From a virus (lineage: Duplodnaviria; Heunggongvirae; Uroviricota; Caudoviricetes), in IMG/VR virus record IMGVR_UViG_2579778993_000003: a stretch of 24,908 bases of DNA. One strand, given 5' to 3'. The notes beneath the pieces were generated by a model. It saw nothing but the letters and a program-made list of their open reading frames with translations. It was not told where the DNA came from and did not search any database. The translations under genes and the position numbers were made by a program. Shown piece by piece: positions 5,363 to 19,815 of this stretch. The first letter of the stretch is position 1. The number at the start of each line of letters is the position of its first letter.

Positions 5363-5439
5363 TGGCGCGTTGTACTGGATTCGAACCAGTGACCGATTGC
5401 TTAGAAGGCAATTGCTCTGTCCGGCTGAGCTAACAACGC
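5363..5439 (-). tRNA. tRNA-Arg (anticodon UCU)
   Basis: Manual cloverleaf on the minus strand: acceptor GCGTTGT/ACAACGC, D-stem GCTC/GAGC, anticodon stem ATTGC/GCAAT with loop CTTCTAA, T-arm ACTGG-TTCGAAT-CCAGT, discriminator G and encoded CCA. All stems perfect; 77 nt. Confidence 0.9.
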
Positions 5440-5452
5440 AGGATACAGATAA

Positions 5453-5529
5453 TGGACCGCCTTCGGGGACCCGAACTCCGCGCAACCAGCTTCGAAGGCT
5501 GGCGCTCTTTCCTGATGAGCTAATGGCGG
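5453..5529 (-). tRNA. Putative tRNA-Arg (anticodon UCG), slightly degenerate
   Basis: Cloverleaf fits with D-stem GCTC/GAGC, anticodon stem CCAGC/GCTGG with loop CTTCGAA, and encoded CCA. There is one mismatch in the acceptor stem (A-A), one in the T-stem (A-C), and an atypical T-loop TTCGGGT, so it may be a diverged or pseudo tRNA. Confidence 0.55.
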
Positions 5530-5536
5530 TATGTGA

Positions 5537-5612
5537 TGGTGGCCCTTGCTGGATTTGAACCAGCGACCTGGCGATTATGAGTCGCTCGCTCTCACCACTG
5601 AGCTAAAGGGCC
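5537..5612 (-). tRNA. tRNA with CAU anticodon (Met by anticodon; resembles the Ile2/lysidine-type ileX/ileZ class)
   Basis: Minus-strand sequence GGCCCTTTAGCTCAGTGGTGAGAGCGAGCGACTCATAATCGCCAGGTCGCTGGTTCAAATCCAGCAAGGGCCACCA folds as a 76-nt cloverleaf with one A-C mismatch in the anticodon stem. It closely resembles E. coli ileX as I recall it. Confidence 0.85.
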
Positions 5613-10231: not shown

Positions 10232-12496
10232 TTATACGGAAACTGGCACACGAGCAGGCAATGGATAGTGAGCCCAGTTATTAGCATTTAAAGCTCTTAC
10301 GCCATCAGCATAAACTTGTGTTTTTCCATCTAATGATTTTAAAGTTACTACAATAGTTACAGGTAAAGGCTCCATTAAGGCCGGTTCATTCGCTCTCAAC
10401 GTTGTTTTAGCTTGAAGAGCCCAGTTACCCGAAGTAATTCCTTTATTAAATGCCTTGCGATGAATTTTTACTGGTGACCACTTTCCACCATGCTCAATTT
10501 GAGCTCTCTCATATCCAGATTGACCGTTTTCTCCTTCCATAGGTACTTTTCCTTTTATAGTATTATTCTCAATTAAGCCAAAACTTAGCTCTACGTTCGC
10601 GCGAACATATTCACTGCCGGCATTAGGGTTCAGTGGTGGTGCATATGCAGCAGTAATTACAATCTCACCTTTAAATTTTCCATTTTGAATAAGTGCCGAT
10701 GGTATGGGATAGTTTTCCTTTCTCCACCTCACCCCAGGAACCAAGAATGTTTGGAAAATCAGAGTAAACCTATCATCACTATCATATAAGGTCTCAATAA
10801 CCTCATTAGGAATTCCCGCTCCCAAATAGCGTCTTTCACTTGGCGAGTAATCAGGAGAAGATAATTGAGCGGAATGAATTAATAATGCTTTAATCAATGA
10901 TGGTGAAACATTAAAGTCTGAATTAGTGGCTATTCTCTGCCATGTATGCGCAGCTAAACTTGCCACAATTGGAGCAGCAAAACTAGTACCAAAATTAGAG
11001 CAAAGCCTATTATCTGGCCCTACGACCTTTAAACTGCTTGCTCCTACATTCCAAGGTCTATGAACCCCACCGCCAGCATGGATTATATCTGGCTTTGGAG
11101 TAAATACAGGCCCAGGGCCACGACGAGTATATGGTGTCGGTGTTCCAATTTCACTTAAAGCATCATTAGCTTCCATATGAGAAACTGAACCAACTGTTAG
11201 TGCTCGGACTGACTCTCCAGGAGAGGAAATTAAATCAGCACCTCCAAGCGGATCAGGATTTGGCCATGTACGTATAGGTTCATCTACATAATTACCTGCA
11301 GCAACTACAAACAAAATACCAAATTTATCGCTGAGCCGATCTAACTCCATCGCAAAATCACTAAACATCTGCTCATTACATGGTCCGCCTCCCAAAGATA
11401 AATTCCAGACTTTTATATCTGGTCTTTTATTTACAGCATCTGCTAGCCTCAGAATTAAATCTGATATATAAGATCCATTTTCATCTAAAGCACAAACATC
11501 ATGGATTTTAGATTTTGTATCAGGAATCCATGGATGATTGTCATTTAAAAAATGAGCGCCTGATATCAATGAAGACACCATAGTCCCATGTTCATAACTC
11601 GTATCAGGAGGAATTACGTATGTTTCCCTACTCACTACCCAAGGAGTAATTGTTGCCGCGATGGGGCTTACCCCAGTGTCAAATACAGCAACAATGGGTA
11701 ATTCTTCTGATGGTACGGGAAAGCTATTTGTTTCAATGCCAACAGAATCACTTACACTAACCGGGAATGCTGAATATTTTGGTTCTGGAATTAACGTTCT
11801 TATACCCGGGTAATCAATGAGAATGTCTAATATATATCTATCATTTGGGGATAAATCCATTATCCTTAATAAGGGAAGACCACATTTTGGTCTAATCTCA
11901 TCATATTTAACTCCGTGTTGTTCTAATATAGAAATAACGTTTTCATAGTTGTTGTAAGTTGCATCTTCACCTGTGTACTCAAATAGTCGTACAAGGATGT
12001 TTGATGATTCAAACAAACCATCAGTGCCTCCTGGAACCTTCCTATTCTCATCCCAAGGTTCAATGCGCTCAATCGCGCTTAGATTAGCCAAAATCGCTTT
12101 AATATTCCGATGTAAAATGACTGACTCTAATACGTCAAAACAGCCGGCATGAGCAGCAACCAACATTTCATCTATTTTGGCATGACCGGCATTTTGCAAT
12201 CCAGCCTCTTGAGCAATTTTGTTCGGCCTATGCGTTTTGGCTATTCCCTGGTCTCTTAATTTGAAAACCAAAGTACCCAAGCTTCCAGGGTACTCTGAAA
12301 GTTTGGATTCTAAATAATGTTTACTGGTTGTTAAATTTCTTACTAGCCCTTGTCTATATTCGGCTGTTACATCAACCAATACCTTTGCCCCACCGCCAGC
12401 GTTTACTATTGCACCCAAGTCACTACTGGAAAAAGGGATTCTTAACATTGGGTTTGTAACTTTTGCGTTACTAAACTGTGTACCCCTTCTGCTCAT
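10232..12496 (-). CDS. Subtilisin-like serine protease (peptidase S8) with extra N- and C-terminal domains, 754 aa; protease component of an IetAS-like two-gene system
   Basis: Catalytic residues in subtilisin order: Asp in VAVFDTGVS, His in YEHGTMVSS, oxyanion Asn in VVAAGNY, Ser in GTSFAAPIVAS. ATG at 12494-12496 with a GGAG/AGGAG SD inside the 3' end of the upstream ATPase gene (26-bp overlap). A+T-rich relative to neighbouring prophage genes. Confidence 0.9.
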   Translation of the reverse strand: MSRRGTQFSNAKVTNPMLRIPFSSSDLGAIVNAGGGAKVLVDVTAEYRQGLVRNLTTSKHYLESKLSEYPGSLGTLVFKLRDQGIAKTHRPNKIAQEAGLQNAGHAKIDEMLVAAHAGCFDVLESVILHRNIKAILANLSAIERIEPWDENRKVPGGTDGLFESSNILVRLFEYTGEDATYNNYENVISILEQHGVKYDEIRPKCGLPLLRIMDLSPNDRYILDILIDYPGIRTLIPEPKYSAFPVSVSDSVGIETNSFPVPSEELPIVAVFDTGVSPIAATITPWVVSRETYVIPPDTSYEHGTMVSSLISGAHFLNDNHPWIPDTKSKIHDVCALDENGSYISDLILRLADAVNKRPDIKVWNLSLGGGPCNEQMFSDFAMELDRLSDKFGILFVVAAGNYVDEPIRTWPNPDPLGGADLISSPGESVRALTVGSVSHMEANDALSEIGTPTPYTRRGPGPVFTPKPDIIHAGGGVHRPWNVGASSLKVVGPDNRLCSNFGTSFAAPIVASLAAHTWQRIATNSDFNVSPSLIKALLIHSAQLSSPDYSPSERRYLGAGIPNEVIETLYDSDDRFTLIFQTFLVPGVRWRKENYPIPSALIQNGKFKGEIVITAAYAPPLNPNAGSEYVRANVELSFGLIENNTIKGKVPMEGENGQSGYERAQIEHGGKWSPVKIHRKAFNKGITSGNWALQAKTTLRANEPALMEPLPVTIVVTLKSLDGKTQVYADGVRALNANNWAHYPLPARVPVSV

Positions 12497-13625
12497 ATGC
12501 TCCTGACTCCTTCAGAATGTTTGAAATTACTCTTGATGTAAGTTTGTACAAATTAGCAAGAACTCTGATAGAAAATAATTTTTTATCTTTAGAACGTAAC
12601 CAACGAATTTCATCTTCGTAAGTGCTTAAATTTACACCTTCCATAAGCGATTGCGCAAGATACAAACGCCTATACAATTTATGGTGATTTATCACACTTG
12701 CACCTTCAATAACTGCATCCCTACGTGCATCCAAGCTCACCTGTTCAATTATTGCTCCGGATAATCCCTCCGATTTTCTTGATAAATCACTTAAATCTAG
12801 ATCGCTACATATCATATTCTTTAAACGATTTTTCCAAATTAACTCTCTCTGATGTATGTCAGGCAGAGGCATTGGAATTCTGAAGCTAAATCGCCTCCAG
12901 ATTGCAGGATCCAGAAGTTGCTCATGGTTAGTTGAGGCAATAATTACCGTATCCTCTGATGCCGCATCCATATTCTGCAATAGTGAAATGACAACTCGCT
13001 GAAGCTCACCTATATCTCTCTCATTACCTCTTGCTCCAGCTAAAGCATCAAATTCGTCTAAAAAAAGCACTGATGGCCTCTGCATTACATAATCGAAAAC
13101 CTGTCTAAGATTTTTGCTGGTTTGTCCCAATAAACTACTAATCAAAGTATCGCAACGCACTGTAAGAAGTGGAAAATCTAAGCGGGTAGCGATGTACTTA
13201 GATAACATAGTCTTACCTGTTCCTGGCTTTCCATACACGAGCATACGACTCGGCAATGCTGCATCAGCTTTAACAAACTCATCATAACGTTGAACATTAG
13301 TGATAAACTCTTCAACACGGGTACTGATTGCTGCAGGCAGAAAAATCTCTGAACTGTCTAATTTAGGATAACTGACATCAACAGTGTTGAGTCGACTATC
13401 AATATCTACCGGTAATGAGCCCAGAGATATCCCACCTCCAGCCCTTTGAGCTCCTGCCAACGCCTGGGGAGCTCTAAGCAACCTTTCTCTTATCATTCTG
13501 GCTTGCTTGACCTCCCCTTTTTGTTCGAGCTTATCTGCCAGCAACCCAGCATAATTACTAGCCATCGAAGCATTTGCCTTTGTTGCACCTTCAATGATTT
13601 TTAACACTTCTGATAAATAATCCAT
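12471..13625 (-). CDS. Classic AAA-family ATPase, 384 aa; ATPase component of an IetAS-like two-gene system
   Basis: Walker A GKPGTGKT, Walker B VLFLDEFD, and a second-region-of-homology-like segment ASTNHEQLLDPAIWRRFSF with sensor Asn and Arg fingers. ATG at 13623-13625 preceded by GGGAG with a 6-nt spacer, after an AT-rich ~190-bp leader. Confidence 0.9.
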   Translation of the reverse strand: MDYLSEVLKIIEGATKANASMASNYAGLLADKLEQKGEVKQARMIRERLLRAPQALAGAQRAGGGISLGSLPVDIDSRLNTVDVSYPKLDSSEIFLPAAISTRVEEFITNVQRYDEFVKADAALPSRMLVYGKPGTGKTMLSKYIATRLDFPLLTVRCDTLISSLLGQTSKNLRQVFDYVMQRPSVLFLDEFDALAGARGNERDIGELQRVVISLLQNMDAASEDTVIIASTNHEQLLDPAIWRRFSFRIPMPLPDIHQRELIWKNRLKNMICSDLDLSDLSRKSEGLSGAIIEQVSLDARRDAVIEGASVINHHKLYRRLYLAQSLMEGVNLSTYEDEIRWLRSKDKKLFSIRVLANLYKLTSRVISNILKESGAYEQKGYTV

Positions 13626-17213: not shown

Positions 17214-17478
17214 GAATCAAGCTCCTAGAAAGTGGTTGTGTTAACGTTTTGGTATCTTCCAGCTCGGGCCAAATATTCATCCAATCAAAAGGCCTTAGTT
17301 GCTGACGTGTAACTTCACCATTACTGGCTCGCTCAATAAGGACACATAACGATGCCCCTAACACTTGACCTTTACTCAATGCCTTTCTTAGATAACCGAT
17401 GCTGGTACCACACTCGCATGCAAACATACGCTGTTCATCTGACGAAAGAGAATTGAGAAATATTCTTAATTCTTCCAT
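17197..17478 (-). CDS. Cro/YdaS-like HTH regulator, 93 aa
   Basis: ATG at 17476-17478 with an AAGGAG SD 5 nt upstream. HTH-like segment ECGTSIGYLRKALSKGQ. Divergent from the repressor gene across a 100-bp operator-containing region. Confidence 0.65.
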   Translation of the reverse strand: MEELRIFLNSLSSDEQRMFACECGTSIGYLRKALSKGQVLGASLCVLIERASNGEVTRQQLRPFDWMNIWPELEDTKTLTQPLSRSLIHENQA

Positions 17479-17505
17479 AGCTACTCCTTAGTAAACACAG
17501 CAAAG

Positions 17506-17543
17506 AATACCCACAGGTAAACAAAAGTCAATACCCACAGGTT
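17506..17543. promoter_or_regulatory. Two direct copies of a 13-bp operator-like site (AATACCCACAGGT) in the divergent repressor/cro promoter region
   Basis: Copies at 17506-17518 and 17531-17543, centres 25 bp apart. A candidate leaderless repressor promoter (-10 TATTAT 17567-17572, -35-like TTTACC 17545-17550) places the transcription start at or next to the repressor ATG (17579). Confidence 0.5.
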
Positions 17544-17578
17544 GTTTACCTTGCGGTAATCGCATCTATTATTTACCT

Positions 17579-17998
17579 ATGGACAAATATGAATTTAGAC
17601 GACAGCAACTCATCAAAATTCGTGATGAGAAATGCGATGGTAAAGCGGTTAACGTGGCCAGAAAGATCGGGCGCGAGCCTTCTTATGTATCAAGAATGTT
17701 GTACCCAGAGGGGAAAAAGGGAAAAAAACGGATCGCTGATGATATGGTGGAGATTATCGAAGAGTCCTTTGGGTTACCCCGGGGATGGATGGATGGTATC
17801 GTTTCATCATCAACGAACACAGCCTCCAGTTATGAAACAAGGGTTCTAACGCCACGACAACGTATTTTTTTAGATCTCTTAGACGAACTGCCAGAAAGTG
17901 AAGCGGATAAATTATTAAAAACTCTTGAAGAGAAAAAACAGTATTACAATATGATCTACGAAGAAATCCGTAAAAAGAAAGCACAAAACGCATCATAG
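17579..17998 (+). CDS. Prophage repressor (RacR-like HTH protein), 139 aa
   Basis: HTH-like segment AVNVARKIGREPSYVSRML. No SD upstream of the ATG, consistent with a leaderless mRNA. Flanked on both sides by related palindromic sites. Confidence 0.65.
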   Translation: MDKYEFRRQQLIKIRDEKCDGKAVNVARKIGREPSYVSRMLYPEGKKGKKRIADDMVEIIEESFGLPRGWMDGIVSSSTNTASSYETRVLTPRQRIFLDLLDELPESEADKLLKTLEEKKQYYNMIYEEIRKKKAQNAS

Positions 17999-18040
17999 CT
18001 CACCAAACAACTAGTCACCAGTTAAGACACCGCAAAAATT

Positions 18041-18077
18041 TACCCATGGGTATTTACTTTTTAAATACCTATGGGTA
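18041..18077. promoter_or_regulatory. Second operator cluster: perfect palindrome TACCCATGGGTA plus near-palindrome ATACCTATGGGTAT
   Basis: Sites at 18041-18052 and 18064-18077 share the half-site TACCCA with the sites at 17506-17543. They lie between the repressor gene and the next plus-strand operon. Confidence 0.5.
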
Positions 18078-18263
18078 TCCTTCTTTTCATACCAACCCAC
18101 CCCGCCCCACAGAATGCAGGGCAATACTTCGAGTTACCAGGCAGTGGTCAGGGGTTAAGTAGCCAGCCCGAGGCGTAAGAACATGACGGCAGGGTTCAAC
18201 TTTAATAACTATGCAGCAGGTTTTTGTTCCGCTACCCCGGCGTTAAGGGGAAATGAGGTCAAC

Positions 18264-18416
18264 ATGGATATGCTCAATCTTGGCAACAACGAATCTCTGG
18301 TATGTGGCGTGTTCCCCAACCAGGACGGCACGTTTACCGCGATGACGTATACCAGAAGCAAAACGTTTAAAACTGAAGCTGGCGCGCGTCGCTGGTTAAC
18401 CAGAAACACTGACTGA
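18264..18416 (+). CDS. Small prophage protein (50 aa), YdaF/DUF1391-like
   Basis: ATG at 18264 preceded by GAGG with a 5-nt spacer. Product MDMLNLGNNESLVCGVFPNQDGTFTAMTYTRSKTFKTEAGARRWLTRNTD. Family assignment is from memory of Rac small proteins and is uncertain. Confidence 0.45.
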   Translation: MDMLNLGNNESLVCGVFPNQDGTFTAMTYTRSKTFKTEAGARRWLTRNTD

Positions 18417-19099: not shown

Positions 19100-19460
19100 T
19101 CTCCACGGGTCAGGTGGAGTGCGTGCGCCGGACACGGGTGAACATCCGGCACTGACAGTTTACTGAAAGGATATGTCCCTGAAAAGTCAGGGCATAACGC
19201 GAAAGCGCACGGCGAAATTGGTCTCTCTGTACGGTGTCGTTAAATTTAGTTCGACCGTGCGCTTCCGGTTGTGGCAATCCGCGAAATGGTGCGGCGGTAA
19301 GTATGGCGGGGGTATTCCTTCCCCCGTTGAGGACACCGGGTTGTCAGGTTGACCATACGCTTAAGTGACAACCCCGCTGCAACGCCCTCTGTTATCAATT
19401 TTCTGGTGACGTTTGGCGGTATCAGTTTTACTCCGTGACTGCTCTGCCGCCCTTTTTAAA
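19100..19460. other. GC-rich, hairpin-dense non-coding region (candidate structured RNA or DNA site)
   Basis: No convincing ORF. Several perfect stems: GCCGGA/TCCGGC nested inside GTCAG/CTGAC (19111-19156), CCCTGA aaag TCAGGG (~19177-19194), GCGCACGG...CCGTGCGC enclosing ~45 nt (~19205-19262), CGGGGG tattcctt CCCCCG (~19307-19326), and GGGTTGTCA-19 nt-TGACAACCC (~19338-19374). Confidence 0.3.
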
Positions 19461-19626: not shown

Positions 19627-19815
19627 ATGGAAACGTTATTACCAAACGTTAATACGTCTGAAGGTTGTTTTGAAATTGGTGTCACTATCAGTAACCCAGT
19701 ATTTACTGAAGATGCCATTAACAAGAGAAAACACGAACGGGAGCTATTAAATAAAATATGCATTCTTTCAATGCTGGCCCGTTTACGTCCGATACAAAAA
19801 GGATGCTGGCAATGA
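19627..19815 (+). CDS. Hypothetical small protein (62 aa)
   Basis: ATG at 19627 preceded by GAGGA with a 7-nt spacer. Product METLLPNVNTSEGCFEIGVTISNPVFTEDAINKRKHERELLNKICILSMLARLRPIQKGCWQ. It occupies the position of small kil-type genes in Rac-like prophages. Confidence 0.35.
   Translation: METLLPNVNTSEGCFEIGVTISNPVFTEDAINKRKHERELLNKICILSMLARLRPIQKGCWQ

Follow-up and report, generated by a model that had tools for sequence, protein, structure and literature searches.

Does the DNA around a small repressor gene of unrecognized family form a lambda-like switch between lysis and lysogeny, and of what kind would such a switch be? The question is raised by the viral record IMGVR_UViG_2579778993_000003 (Caudoviricetes), a stretch of 24,908 nucleotides (nt) that was analysed as a whole and is referred to here as the window. 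For positions 17479 to 18100, the initial annotation had proposed a compact switch in which right-operator (OR)-like and left-operator (OL)-like sites surround a leaderless repressor gene. The window is part of an Escherichia coli lambdoid prophage integrated beside ompW, and several complete E. coli chromosomes are 100% identical to it. Judged by sequence comparison, the region is very probably the immunity (lysis/lysogeny) switch of this prophage. The proposed OR/OL-like arrangement is supported by co-conservation of the sites with the DNA-binding domain of the repressor, by a conserved leaderless layout, and by exchange of the whole region as a cassette. The features expected of a lambdoid switch were found, namely repressor and cro genes that diverge from a short gap, back-to-back PR-like and PRM-like promoters, several palindromic operator-like sites over both promoters, and a second set of sites at a PL-like promoter.

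Palindromic sites around the repressor gene

The repeats reported earlier are present. AATACCCACAGGT occurs exactly twice in the divergent region, at 17506-17518 and 17530-17542, with 0 copies expected, and the palindromes TACCCATGGGTA (18041-18052) and (A)TACCTATGGGTA(T) (18065-18078) lie 3' of the repressor gene. The sites are thus real and related, but their common unit is the palindrome TACC-N4-GGTA and not the 13-nt direct repeat, and their number is five and not four, with three sites in the divergent region and two 3' of the gene. The site that had been missed is OR3, TACCTTGCGGTA. The fifth site is the second direct copy, which fits the palindrome with one mismatch (TACCCACAGGTT at 17532).

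Four exact TACC-N4-GGTA matches were found in the window, all inside the flagged region, against an expectation of 0.14, and none of 100 shuffled sequences reached four. The search for the motif elsewhere in the prophage, which had been suggested as a check, gave no further exact match; sites with one mismatch were at chance level (seven elsewhere in the window, with about 5.5 expected for the whole window). A fourth OR site over the repressor ATG (TACCTATGGACA at 17574-17585) was considered and rejected: it departs from the motif at two positions, and other loci do not conserve it.

The sites are spaced at 24 bp (OR1-OR2), 15 bp (OR2-OR3), and 25 bp (OL2-OL1), centre to centre. The centre of OR2 lies at -41.5 from the repressor ATG and at about -40.5 from the PR start that is predicted near 17497. 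In lambda, OR1 and OR2 are 24 bp apart, and an operator near -42 of PRM occupies the position from which CI activates.

Conservation of the sites with the repressor's DNA-binding domain

A homologue scan with one genome per species yielded 29 loci that encode the DNA-binding domain of the repressor. TACC-N4-GGTA sites at fixed offsets from the repressor ATG were found in 26 of the 29, spanning Enterobacterales, Aeromonas, and Betaproteobacteria, and also in the functional phage mEp043. Site positions were therefore compared among 28 sequences, namely the window, the 26 loci, and mEp043. The first site (O1) lies at -72/-73 in 26 of the 28 and the third (O3) at -32/-33 in 25 of the 28 (at -35 in two loci). 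The second (O2) lies at -47/-48 (-50 in two loci), and 15 of the 17 sequences with an O2 site carry a GGTT variant. A downstream pair of sites, 24-26 bp apart and 3' of the repressor gene or operon, is present in 22 of the 26 loci and in mEp043. The TACC and GGTA half-sites are essentially invariant, and the palindrome is widened to 14 bp by a T (position 0) and an A (position 13). The four central bases vary, with a Y-R-Y-R pattern in O1, OL1, and OL2 and almost no constraint in O3, the most variable site. That the repeats are chance products or remnants of a duplication with no regulatory role is hardly credible: beyond their small copy number, nothing speaks for it, and both the shuffling result and this position-specific conservation across genera, maintained despite varying central bases, speak against it.

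Two groups of loci indicate which protein the sites belong to. Five Klebsiella loci retain the domain together with O1, in most cases O3, and one or more downstream sites, with no YdaS-like gene adjoining. Sites of this kind are missing from the three most distant homologues, which are 30-38% identical. Because sites are kept where the YdaS-like gene is missing and lost where the repressor homologue is distant, they follow the DNA-binding domain of the repressor. This amounts to strong indirect evidence, drawn from sequence conservation, that the TACC-N4-GGTA sites are operators of the repressor.

The competing view, that the YdaS-type Cro-like protein is the main one to recognise the sites and that the 139-amino-acid (aa) protein has another role or other targets, has in its favour that the Cro-like protein is co-inherited with the sites in most loci and that the footprints of YdaS and PaaR2 in the prophage CP-933P cover one and the same region (PMC8630535). 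The Cro-like protein of the window is 36% identical to CP-933P YdaS and matches phrog_35 (transcriptional repressor, E 5e-23); its score of 25.8 bits against Pfam YdaS_toxin does not reach the cut-off of 30. In loci with three sites, its homologues are encoded divergently from the repressor. Given the Klebsiella loci and the distant homologues, however, we regard Cro as the main recognition protein as very unlikely. Since both proteins share operators in known switches, recognition by Cro is more a complement to binding by the repressor than a rival of it.

The Klebsiella loci (L005, L007, and L009-L011) are also distinctive in themselves. They encode S24-type homologues of 233 aa (242 aa by gene callers), lack O2 and a divergent YdaS-like cro gene, and have their sites near -73 and -33 relative to the repressor ATG and near +910 to +980. 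This suggests a different, possibly stand-alone, regulatory arrangement.

Predicted promoters and the leaderless layout

The PR-like promoter, with 9 of 12 consensus matches in the promoter scan, is interlocked with two sites: OR2 abuts its -35 element, and the TA of its -10 element comes from OR1, giving the layout aACCTGTGGGTA-TTGACT-tttgtt-TACCTGTGGGTA-ttct. Related loci likewise have TTGA beside O2 and a -10 whose TA belongs to O1. The cro-like gene has AGGAG at 17488..17484.

On the opposite strand, the -35 of the PRM-like promoter (also a 9/12 consensus match) shares TACC with OR3. As described in the initial annotation, the repressor ATG is 6 nt (ttacct) past TATTAT, and no GGAG-like sequence lies upstream. 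The open reading frame (ORF) of 139 aa is present as described and has no alternative in-frame start between the upstream stop at 17492-17494 and 17579; M1, K3, Y4, and E5 are invariant among the homologues. The layout TTTACC-16-TANNNT followed after 6-7 nt by ATG is found in about 20 of 25 related loci, and in two more with an 18-nt spacer; the distance from the -10 to the ATG is 9 nt in two related loci. Where strings resembling a Shine-Dalgarno (SD) sequence occur in related loci, they sit at or 5' of the -10 hexamer and therefore outside a transcript that starts at the ATG. The conserved position of a -10 element ending 6-7 nt before an SD-less ATG supports a leaderless repressor mRNA, and the repressor gene is probably leaderless.

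Transcription might instead start at a more distant upstream promoter, such as a PRE-like one close to the YdaT site, with a long leader lacking an SD sequence. A YdaT-dependent promoter of this kind, PRE933P, is known from the sister cassette of CP-933P (PMC9986795), and the window contains the YdaT site; moreover, the TATTAT/TTTACC promoter departs from consensus at three of its 12 positions. On the other hand, a -10-like hexamer stands 6-7 nt before the ATG and 16 bp past TTTACC in more than 20 diverged loci, none of which has an SD sequence within reach. In the sister cassette, leaderless transcription and translation of paaR2 were demonstrated by 5'-RACE, N-terminal sequencing, and mass spectrometry (PMC8630535). 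A PRE transcript could also coexist with a leaderless maintenance transcript, as in lambda. A repressor mRNA with a long leader as the alternative to the leaderless one therefore appears improbable.

The downstream pair as probable operators, probable promoter, and possible terminator

The PL-like promoter was read by hand. Its geometry mirrors that of PR, with one site abutting the -35 and the other over the TA of the -10, in the layout TACCCATGGGTA-TTTACT-ttttaaa-TACCTATGGGTA-tcct with 7 nt between the -35 and OL1, and its start is predicted at about 18088. The same unit, consisting of a site, a TTGACA/TTTACT-like -35, a spacer, and a site over a TANNNT -10, recurs in fixed register in 22 loci and mEp043.

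The same DNA encodes a hairpin that the initial annotation did not mention. Both OL sites are close to perfect palindromes and have TTTA and TAAA at their flanks, so that a 16-pair stem with a 5-nt loop can form in the RNA of 18041-18077. This hairpin has a minimum free energy of -22.2 kcal/mol (z = -5.8); none of 200 shuffles folds as well. The interval from the repressor stop at 17998 to OL at 18041 is free of genes, and a scan from that stop to 18040/PL gave no other terminator candidate. In terminator scans of two sister cassettes, nothing clear was found on the relevant strand.

The downstream palindromes could accordingly be the arms of a rho-independent terminator of the repressor gene and nothing else, with no operators and no PL. 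The stable stem, which is followed by TCCTTCTTTT, the lack of another terminator-like element before 18040, and the lack of a plus-strand promoter above the scan threshold fit this explanation. Both arms of the hairpin, however, are exact TACC-N4-GGTA sites of the same kind as the OR sites, and the pair at 24-26 bp is kept in the 22 loci and mEp043 while the hairpin energy drops to between -6 and -17 kcal/mol. The -35-like and -10-like elements stand in fixed register with the sites, and the cassette junction described below falls 6-7 nt past the proposed -10, a position that it also has relative to PL933P, whose activity was shown experimentally (PMC8630535). Terminator arms alone are thus a quite improbable explanation, and a dual role of the downstream pair, as operators and terminator, is likely. 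Since read-through into dicB would express dicB, a terminator role is plausible; taken separately, termination of the repressor transcript is proposed only tentatively as a secondary role of the hairpin.

In a more far-reaching version, 37 bp would serve twice, as OL1/OL2 and the core of PL in the DNA and as a terminator in the RNA. Together with the exchange of an S24 domain for a DicA-like one in the repressor, this would yield a minimal, RecA-independent cassette of 0.86 kb. We consider this combination possible but rather doubtful. If it is correct, the cassette might be induced by an antirepressor alone, or not at all, and cross-reaction might occur with phages of the mEp043 type, whose operator consensus is the same.

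Exchange of the region as an immunity cassette

An identical YdaT protein adjoins three cassettes in E. coli, all on the backbone of a Qin-like dicB operon: paaR2-paaA2-parE2 with ydaS (CP-933P type), an S24-type cI with a P22-type cro, and the pair found in the window. The similarity of the window to representatives of the first two types (L033 and L035, respectively) ends at 17219-17225, at the YdaT site, and resumes at 18088-18089. In all three cassettes, including that with PL933P, the -10 element ends 4-7 nt before the 18088/9 junction. PL933P (TTGACT-16-TAAACT) is an active promoter that is repressed by PaaR2 and YdaS (PMC8630535). Because the shared sequence starts at about the predicted transcription start of PL, the assignment of PL and OL in the window gains independent support. 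From these alignments, 17226-18087 behaves as an exchangeable immunity cassette.

Residues 2-141 of the window's YdaT are 100% identical to the crystallised YdaT of CP-933P (PDB 8bt1). The motif TTGATT-N6-AATCAA, which occurs exactly once in the window, is the footprinted OM site of CP-933P YdaT, and both motif and position match (PMC9986795). The junction at which the cassette recombines on its right-hand side falls on this YdaT site.

A chimeric repressor lacking an autocleavage domain

The comparison with lambda cI in the initial annotation applies to the leaderless layout and not to the type of protein, which is that of PaaR2 and DicA and has no S24 autocleavage domain. Residues 1-72 (MDKYE...LPRGWMDG) form a helix-turn-helix (HTH) DNA-binding domain that belongs to no Pfam family and is 65-82% identical to the N-terminal domain of many LexA/S24-family CI repressors of 220-242 aa, found in Salmonella, Klebsiella, Pantoea, Edwardsiella, Yersinia, and others and also including mEp043 cI. 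The homologues sharing this domain carry PF00717 (Peptidase_S24). Pfam and PDB sequence searches with the repressor itself gave no Pfam match, no PDB relative, and no S24 domain; it matches PHROG 5736 (transcriptional regulator).

The C-terminal part resembles other proteins. Residues 86-136 match the NCBIfam DicA model at E 1.9e-5, under the family cut-off, and by BLASTP the C terminus is 33% identical to DicA over 46 aa. With PaaR2 of CP-933P, BLASTP gave 23% identity over 90 aa (E 8e-9). The repressor fits the PaaR2/DicA type, in which an N-terminal HTH is joined to a short helical C-terminal domain with an L(T/S)P..L.L...LPE.E motif. In view of the mEp043-type matches at the N terminus and the DicA/PaaR2-type matches at the C terminus, the repressor is a chimera of an mEp043-type DNA-binding domain and a DicA/PaaR2-type C terminus, devoid of an autocleavage domain.

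An AlphaFold2 model (pLDDT 85.7) predicts a helical HTH, a disordered linker at 76-87, and a helical hairpin at 92-138 (helices 92-103 and 106-138). Foldseek matches were XRE-type HTH proteins and were weak (best E 1.6e-3, TM about 0.46), the top one being the antirepressor-controlled repressor of Salmonella phage SPC32H. As far as a predicted model goes, the Foldseek result supports an XRE-type HTH with a helical C-terminal domain, and nothing further.

The protein (RefSeq WP_000362153.1) is present in 822 of 5,426 complete E. coli genomes (about 15%). Variants of 135-136 aa in some E. coli genomes (P0010, P0019, and others) begin with MNLDDSNSS, the start of an overlapping alternative frame at 17589-17849, +1 relative to the repressor, and return to the repressor frame further on. 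They represent frameshifted, probably inactive alleles of the repressor gene.

Proposed operation of the switch

In the proposed switch, the repressor, as a dimer or higher oligomer, would recognise the 12-14-bp palindrome (T)TACC-N4-GGTA(A). Bound at OR1 and OR2 and at OL1 and OL2, it would shut off both PR, which would drive the ydaS-like cro gene, ydaT, and the replication genes, and PL, which is bracketed by OL2 and OL1 and would drive the ydfA-dicF-dicB-exo-xis-int operon. Repressor at OR2 may activate PRM, and repressor at OR3 would exert negative autoregulation on its own promoter. The repressor mRNA most likely starts at the A of its ATG or at most 1 base from it. The Cro-like protein is presumably a competitor for these sites, and YdaT would bind TTGATT-N6-AATCAA at the cro/ydaT junction. 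The OL hairpin with its T-rich tail probably helps to stop repressor transcripts from entering the toxic dicB operon. As DicF, dicB, and ydfD lie 3' of the PL-like promoter, the switch would control a Qin-like operon for inhibitors of cell division.

Several points weigh against this proposal. We infer binding, occupancy order, activation, transcription starts, and termination, and every functional assignment for the cassette is of this indirect kind. The PL-like promoter has 8 of 12 consensus matches and falls under the threshold of the promoter scan. The short OR2-OR3 distance differs from the 23-24 bp between operators in lambda OR, so the lambda logic of occupancy may not carry over. The hairpin stem is A+T-rich, with 5 G-C pairs among 16, its T-rich tail UCCUUCUUUUC is interrupted, and the weak folding of equivalent OL pairs in other loci means that termination may be incidental.

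Induction is a further difficulty. No LexA box (CTGT-N8-ACAG) occurs anywhere in the window. Together with the lack of an S24 domain, this means that induction, if any, does not proceed through RecA-stimulated cleavage. With neither an S24 domain nor a Pfam match nor a LexA box, the prophage may be non-inducible. An antirepressor is one possible route. No antirepressor gene is recognisable in the window.

Comparison with known systems

The kind of switch is well known from lambda, and the sister cassette of CP-933P/Sp12 in E. coli O157:H7 has already been dissected experimentally (PMC8630535, PMC9986795). CP-933P has the same backbone at the same position, with the YdaT of PDB 8bt1, the same TTGATT-N6-AATCAA site, and the same PL transcript leader and dicB region. 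Both cassettes have a divergent region of about 100 bp with back-to-back PR and PRM, an SD-less gene for a small repressor with an HTH and a DicA-like C terminus but no S24 domain, a Cro of the YdaS type, and another group of operators at PL. They differ in the repressors, which share only the 23% identity given above, and in the operators, which are unrelated: those of PaaR2 are 18-bp repeats with the half-site GTTTAGTAA (PMC8630535). In the CP-933P-type locus L033, PaaA2 and ParE_toxin genes occupy the interval between the repressor gene and OL; the window has no paaA2-parE2, and unlike in CP-933P, its OL sites stand directly 3' of the repressor gene and form the hairpin.

With mEp043 and the S24-type CI repressors, the window shares the operator consensus, the site positions (-72, -47, -32, and the OL pair), a YdaS-like Cro, and the homologous DNA-binding domain; the layout in mEp043 is TTTACC-16-TAGAAT-6 nt-ATG. 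The window protein has a DicA-like helical domain of about 50 residues in place of Peptidase_S24. Whereas PL of mEp043 drives the gene for the N antiterminator, the PL-like promoter of the window precedes ydfA-dicB.

Qin of E. coli K-12 (dicC-dicA-ydfABC-dicF-dicB) has the same order of cro-like gene, repressor gene, DUF1391/ydfA, dicF, dicB, and ydfD. Nucleotide identity to Qin is 89-95% from 18226 of the window onward; upstream of 18226 the sequences are unrelated. The resemblance to DicA is confined to the 46 C-terminal residues of the repressor, and the DNA-binding domain, operators, and Cro differ.

Lambda, like the switch proposed for the window, has three operators between divergent PR and PRM and further operators at PL, 3' of its repressor operon, and the lambda cI mRNA is leaderless. 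There is no sequence similarity, however, and the lambda operators are of 17 bp (12-14 bp in the window), with three OL sites instead of two and with OL 2.4 kb from OR instead of 0.5 kb; lacking S24, the window repressor is not expected to undergo RecA-mediated cleavage. The literature search gave no relevant account of the window's repressor, its operator strings, or mEp043 immunity, subscription journals being outside its reach. A nucleotide search of phage records found the flanks of the cassette and not the cassette itself, and mEp043 came from the protein-level search.

The general view of how such switches work is unchanged by these results. What they provide is a probable function for a protein annotated as hypothetical, WP_000362153.1, which would control dicB/dicF, xis-int recombination, and the replication genes. 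They also provide a proposed operator code, (T)TACC-N4-GGTA(A), for a DNA-binding domain outside the Pfam families that occurs in S24-type and DicA-type repressors of Gamma- and Betaproteobacteria. A family of probably leaderless repressor genes joins the few known examples (lambda cI and paaR2), and the three cassettes offer a clean natural case of immunity regions swapped at defined junctions, the YdaT site and the start of PL.

Gene order and neighbouring features

The features of the region are collected in Table 1. Beyond the repressor gene, the order is the ydfA-like DUF1391 gene, DicF RNA, dicB, ydfD, an exonuclease gene, xis, int, and ompW. The gap between the divergent ATG codons, at 17478 (minus strand) and 17579 (plus strand), is 100 bp, and that between the repressor gene and the ydfA-like gene, the first gene of the Qin-like dicB operon on the PL side, is 265 bp.

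Table 1. Features of the putative immunity region and its neighbours (positions in the window)
Feature	Position	Strand	Description
ydaV, dnaC-like		-	Followed in the gene order by an O-like HTH gene (minus strand)
ydaT, CII-equivalent, 141 aa	16788-17213	-	Pfam YdaT_toxin; PDB 8bt1 identity
cro-like gene, YdaS-like, 93 aa	17197-17478	-	ORF
YdaT site TTGATTttcatgAATCAA	17203-17220	.	Exact TTGATT-N6-AATCAA; cro-like stop/ydaT start
Immunity cassette	17226-18087	.	3' part of cro-like gene, OR, repressor gene, OL/PL
PR-like promoter	17504-17531	-	-35 TTGACT 17531..17526, 16-nt spacer, -10 TATTCT 17509..17504
OR1 TACCCACAGGTA	17508-17519	.	Exact motif; over PR-like spacer and first two -10 bases
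OR2 TACCCACAGGTT	17532-17543	.	One mismatch; degenerate right half-site; between both -35 boxes
PRM-like promoter	17545-17572	+	-35 TTTACC 17545-17550, 16-nt spacer, -10 TATTAT 17567-17572
OR3 TACCTTGCGGTA	17547-17558	.	Exact motif; over repressor promoter -35
Repressor gene, 139 aa	17579-17998	+	ORF; WP_000362153.1, "hypothetical protein" in RefSeq
OL hairpin	18041-18087	+	OL2, TTTA, loop, TAAA, OL1, then tail TCCTTCTTTTC
OL2 TACCCATGGGTA	18041-18052	.	Exact motif, perfect palindrome; abuts PL-like -35
PL-like promoter	18053-18081	+	-35 TTTACT 18053-18058, 17-nt spacer, -10 TATCCT 18076-18081
OL1 TACCTATGGGTA	18066-18077	.	Exact motif; over PL-like spacer and first two -10 bases
ydfA-like DUF1391 gene	18264-18416	+	Pfam DUF1391, RefSeq annotation, alignment with Qin ydfA
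DicF RNA	19401-19452	+	Rfam, 76.7 bits
dicB	~19627-19815	+	3' of DicF RNA; ydfD also 3' of PL-like promoter

Two further observations concern other parts of the prophage, both from the RefSeq annotation of an identical locus. A pair of anti-phage defence genes, IteS (S8 peptidase, 10232-12496, minus strand) and IteA (ATPase, 12471-13625, minus strand), forms cargo located between the genes for replication and the Q-antiterminator region. In the late region, three prophage-borne tRNA genes (Arg, Arg, and Ile; about 5363-5612, minus strand) lie beside a DNA methyltransferase gene.

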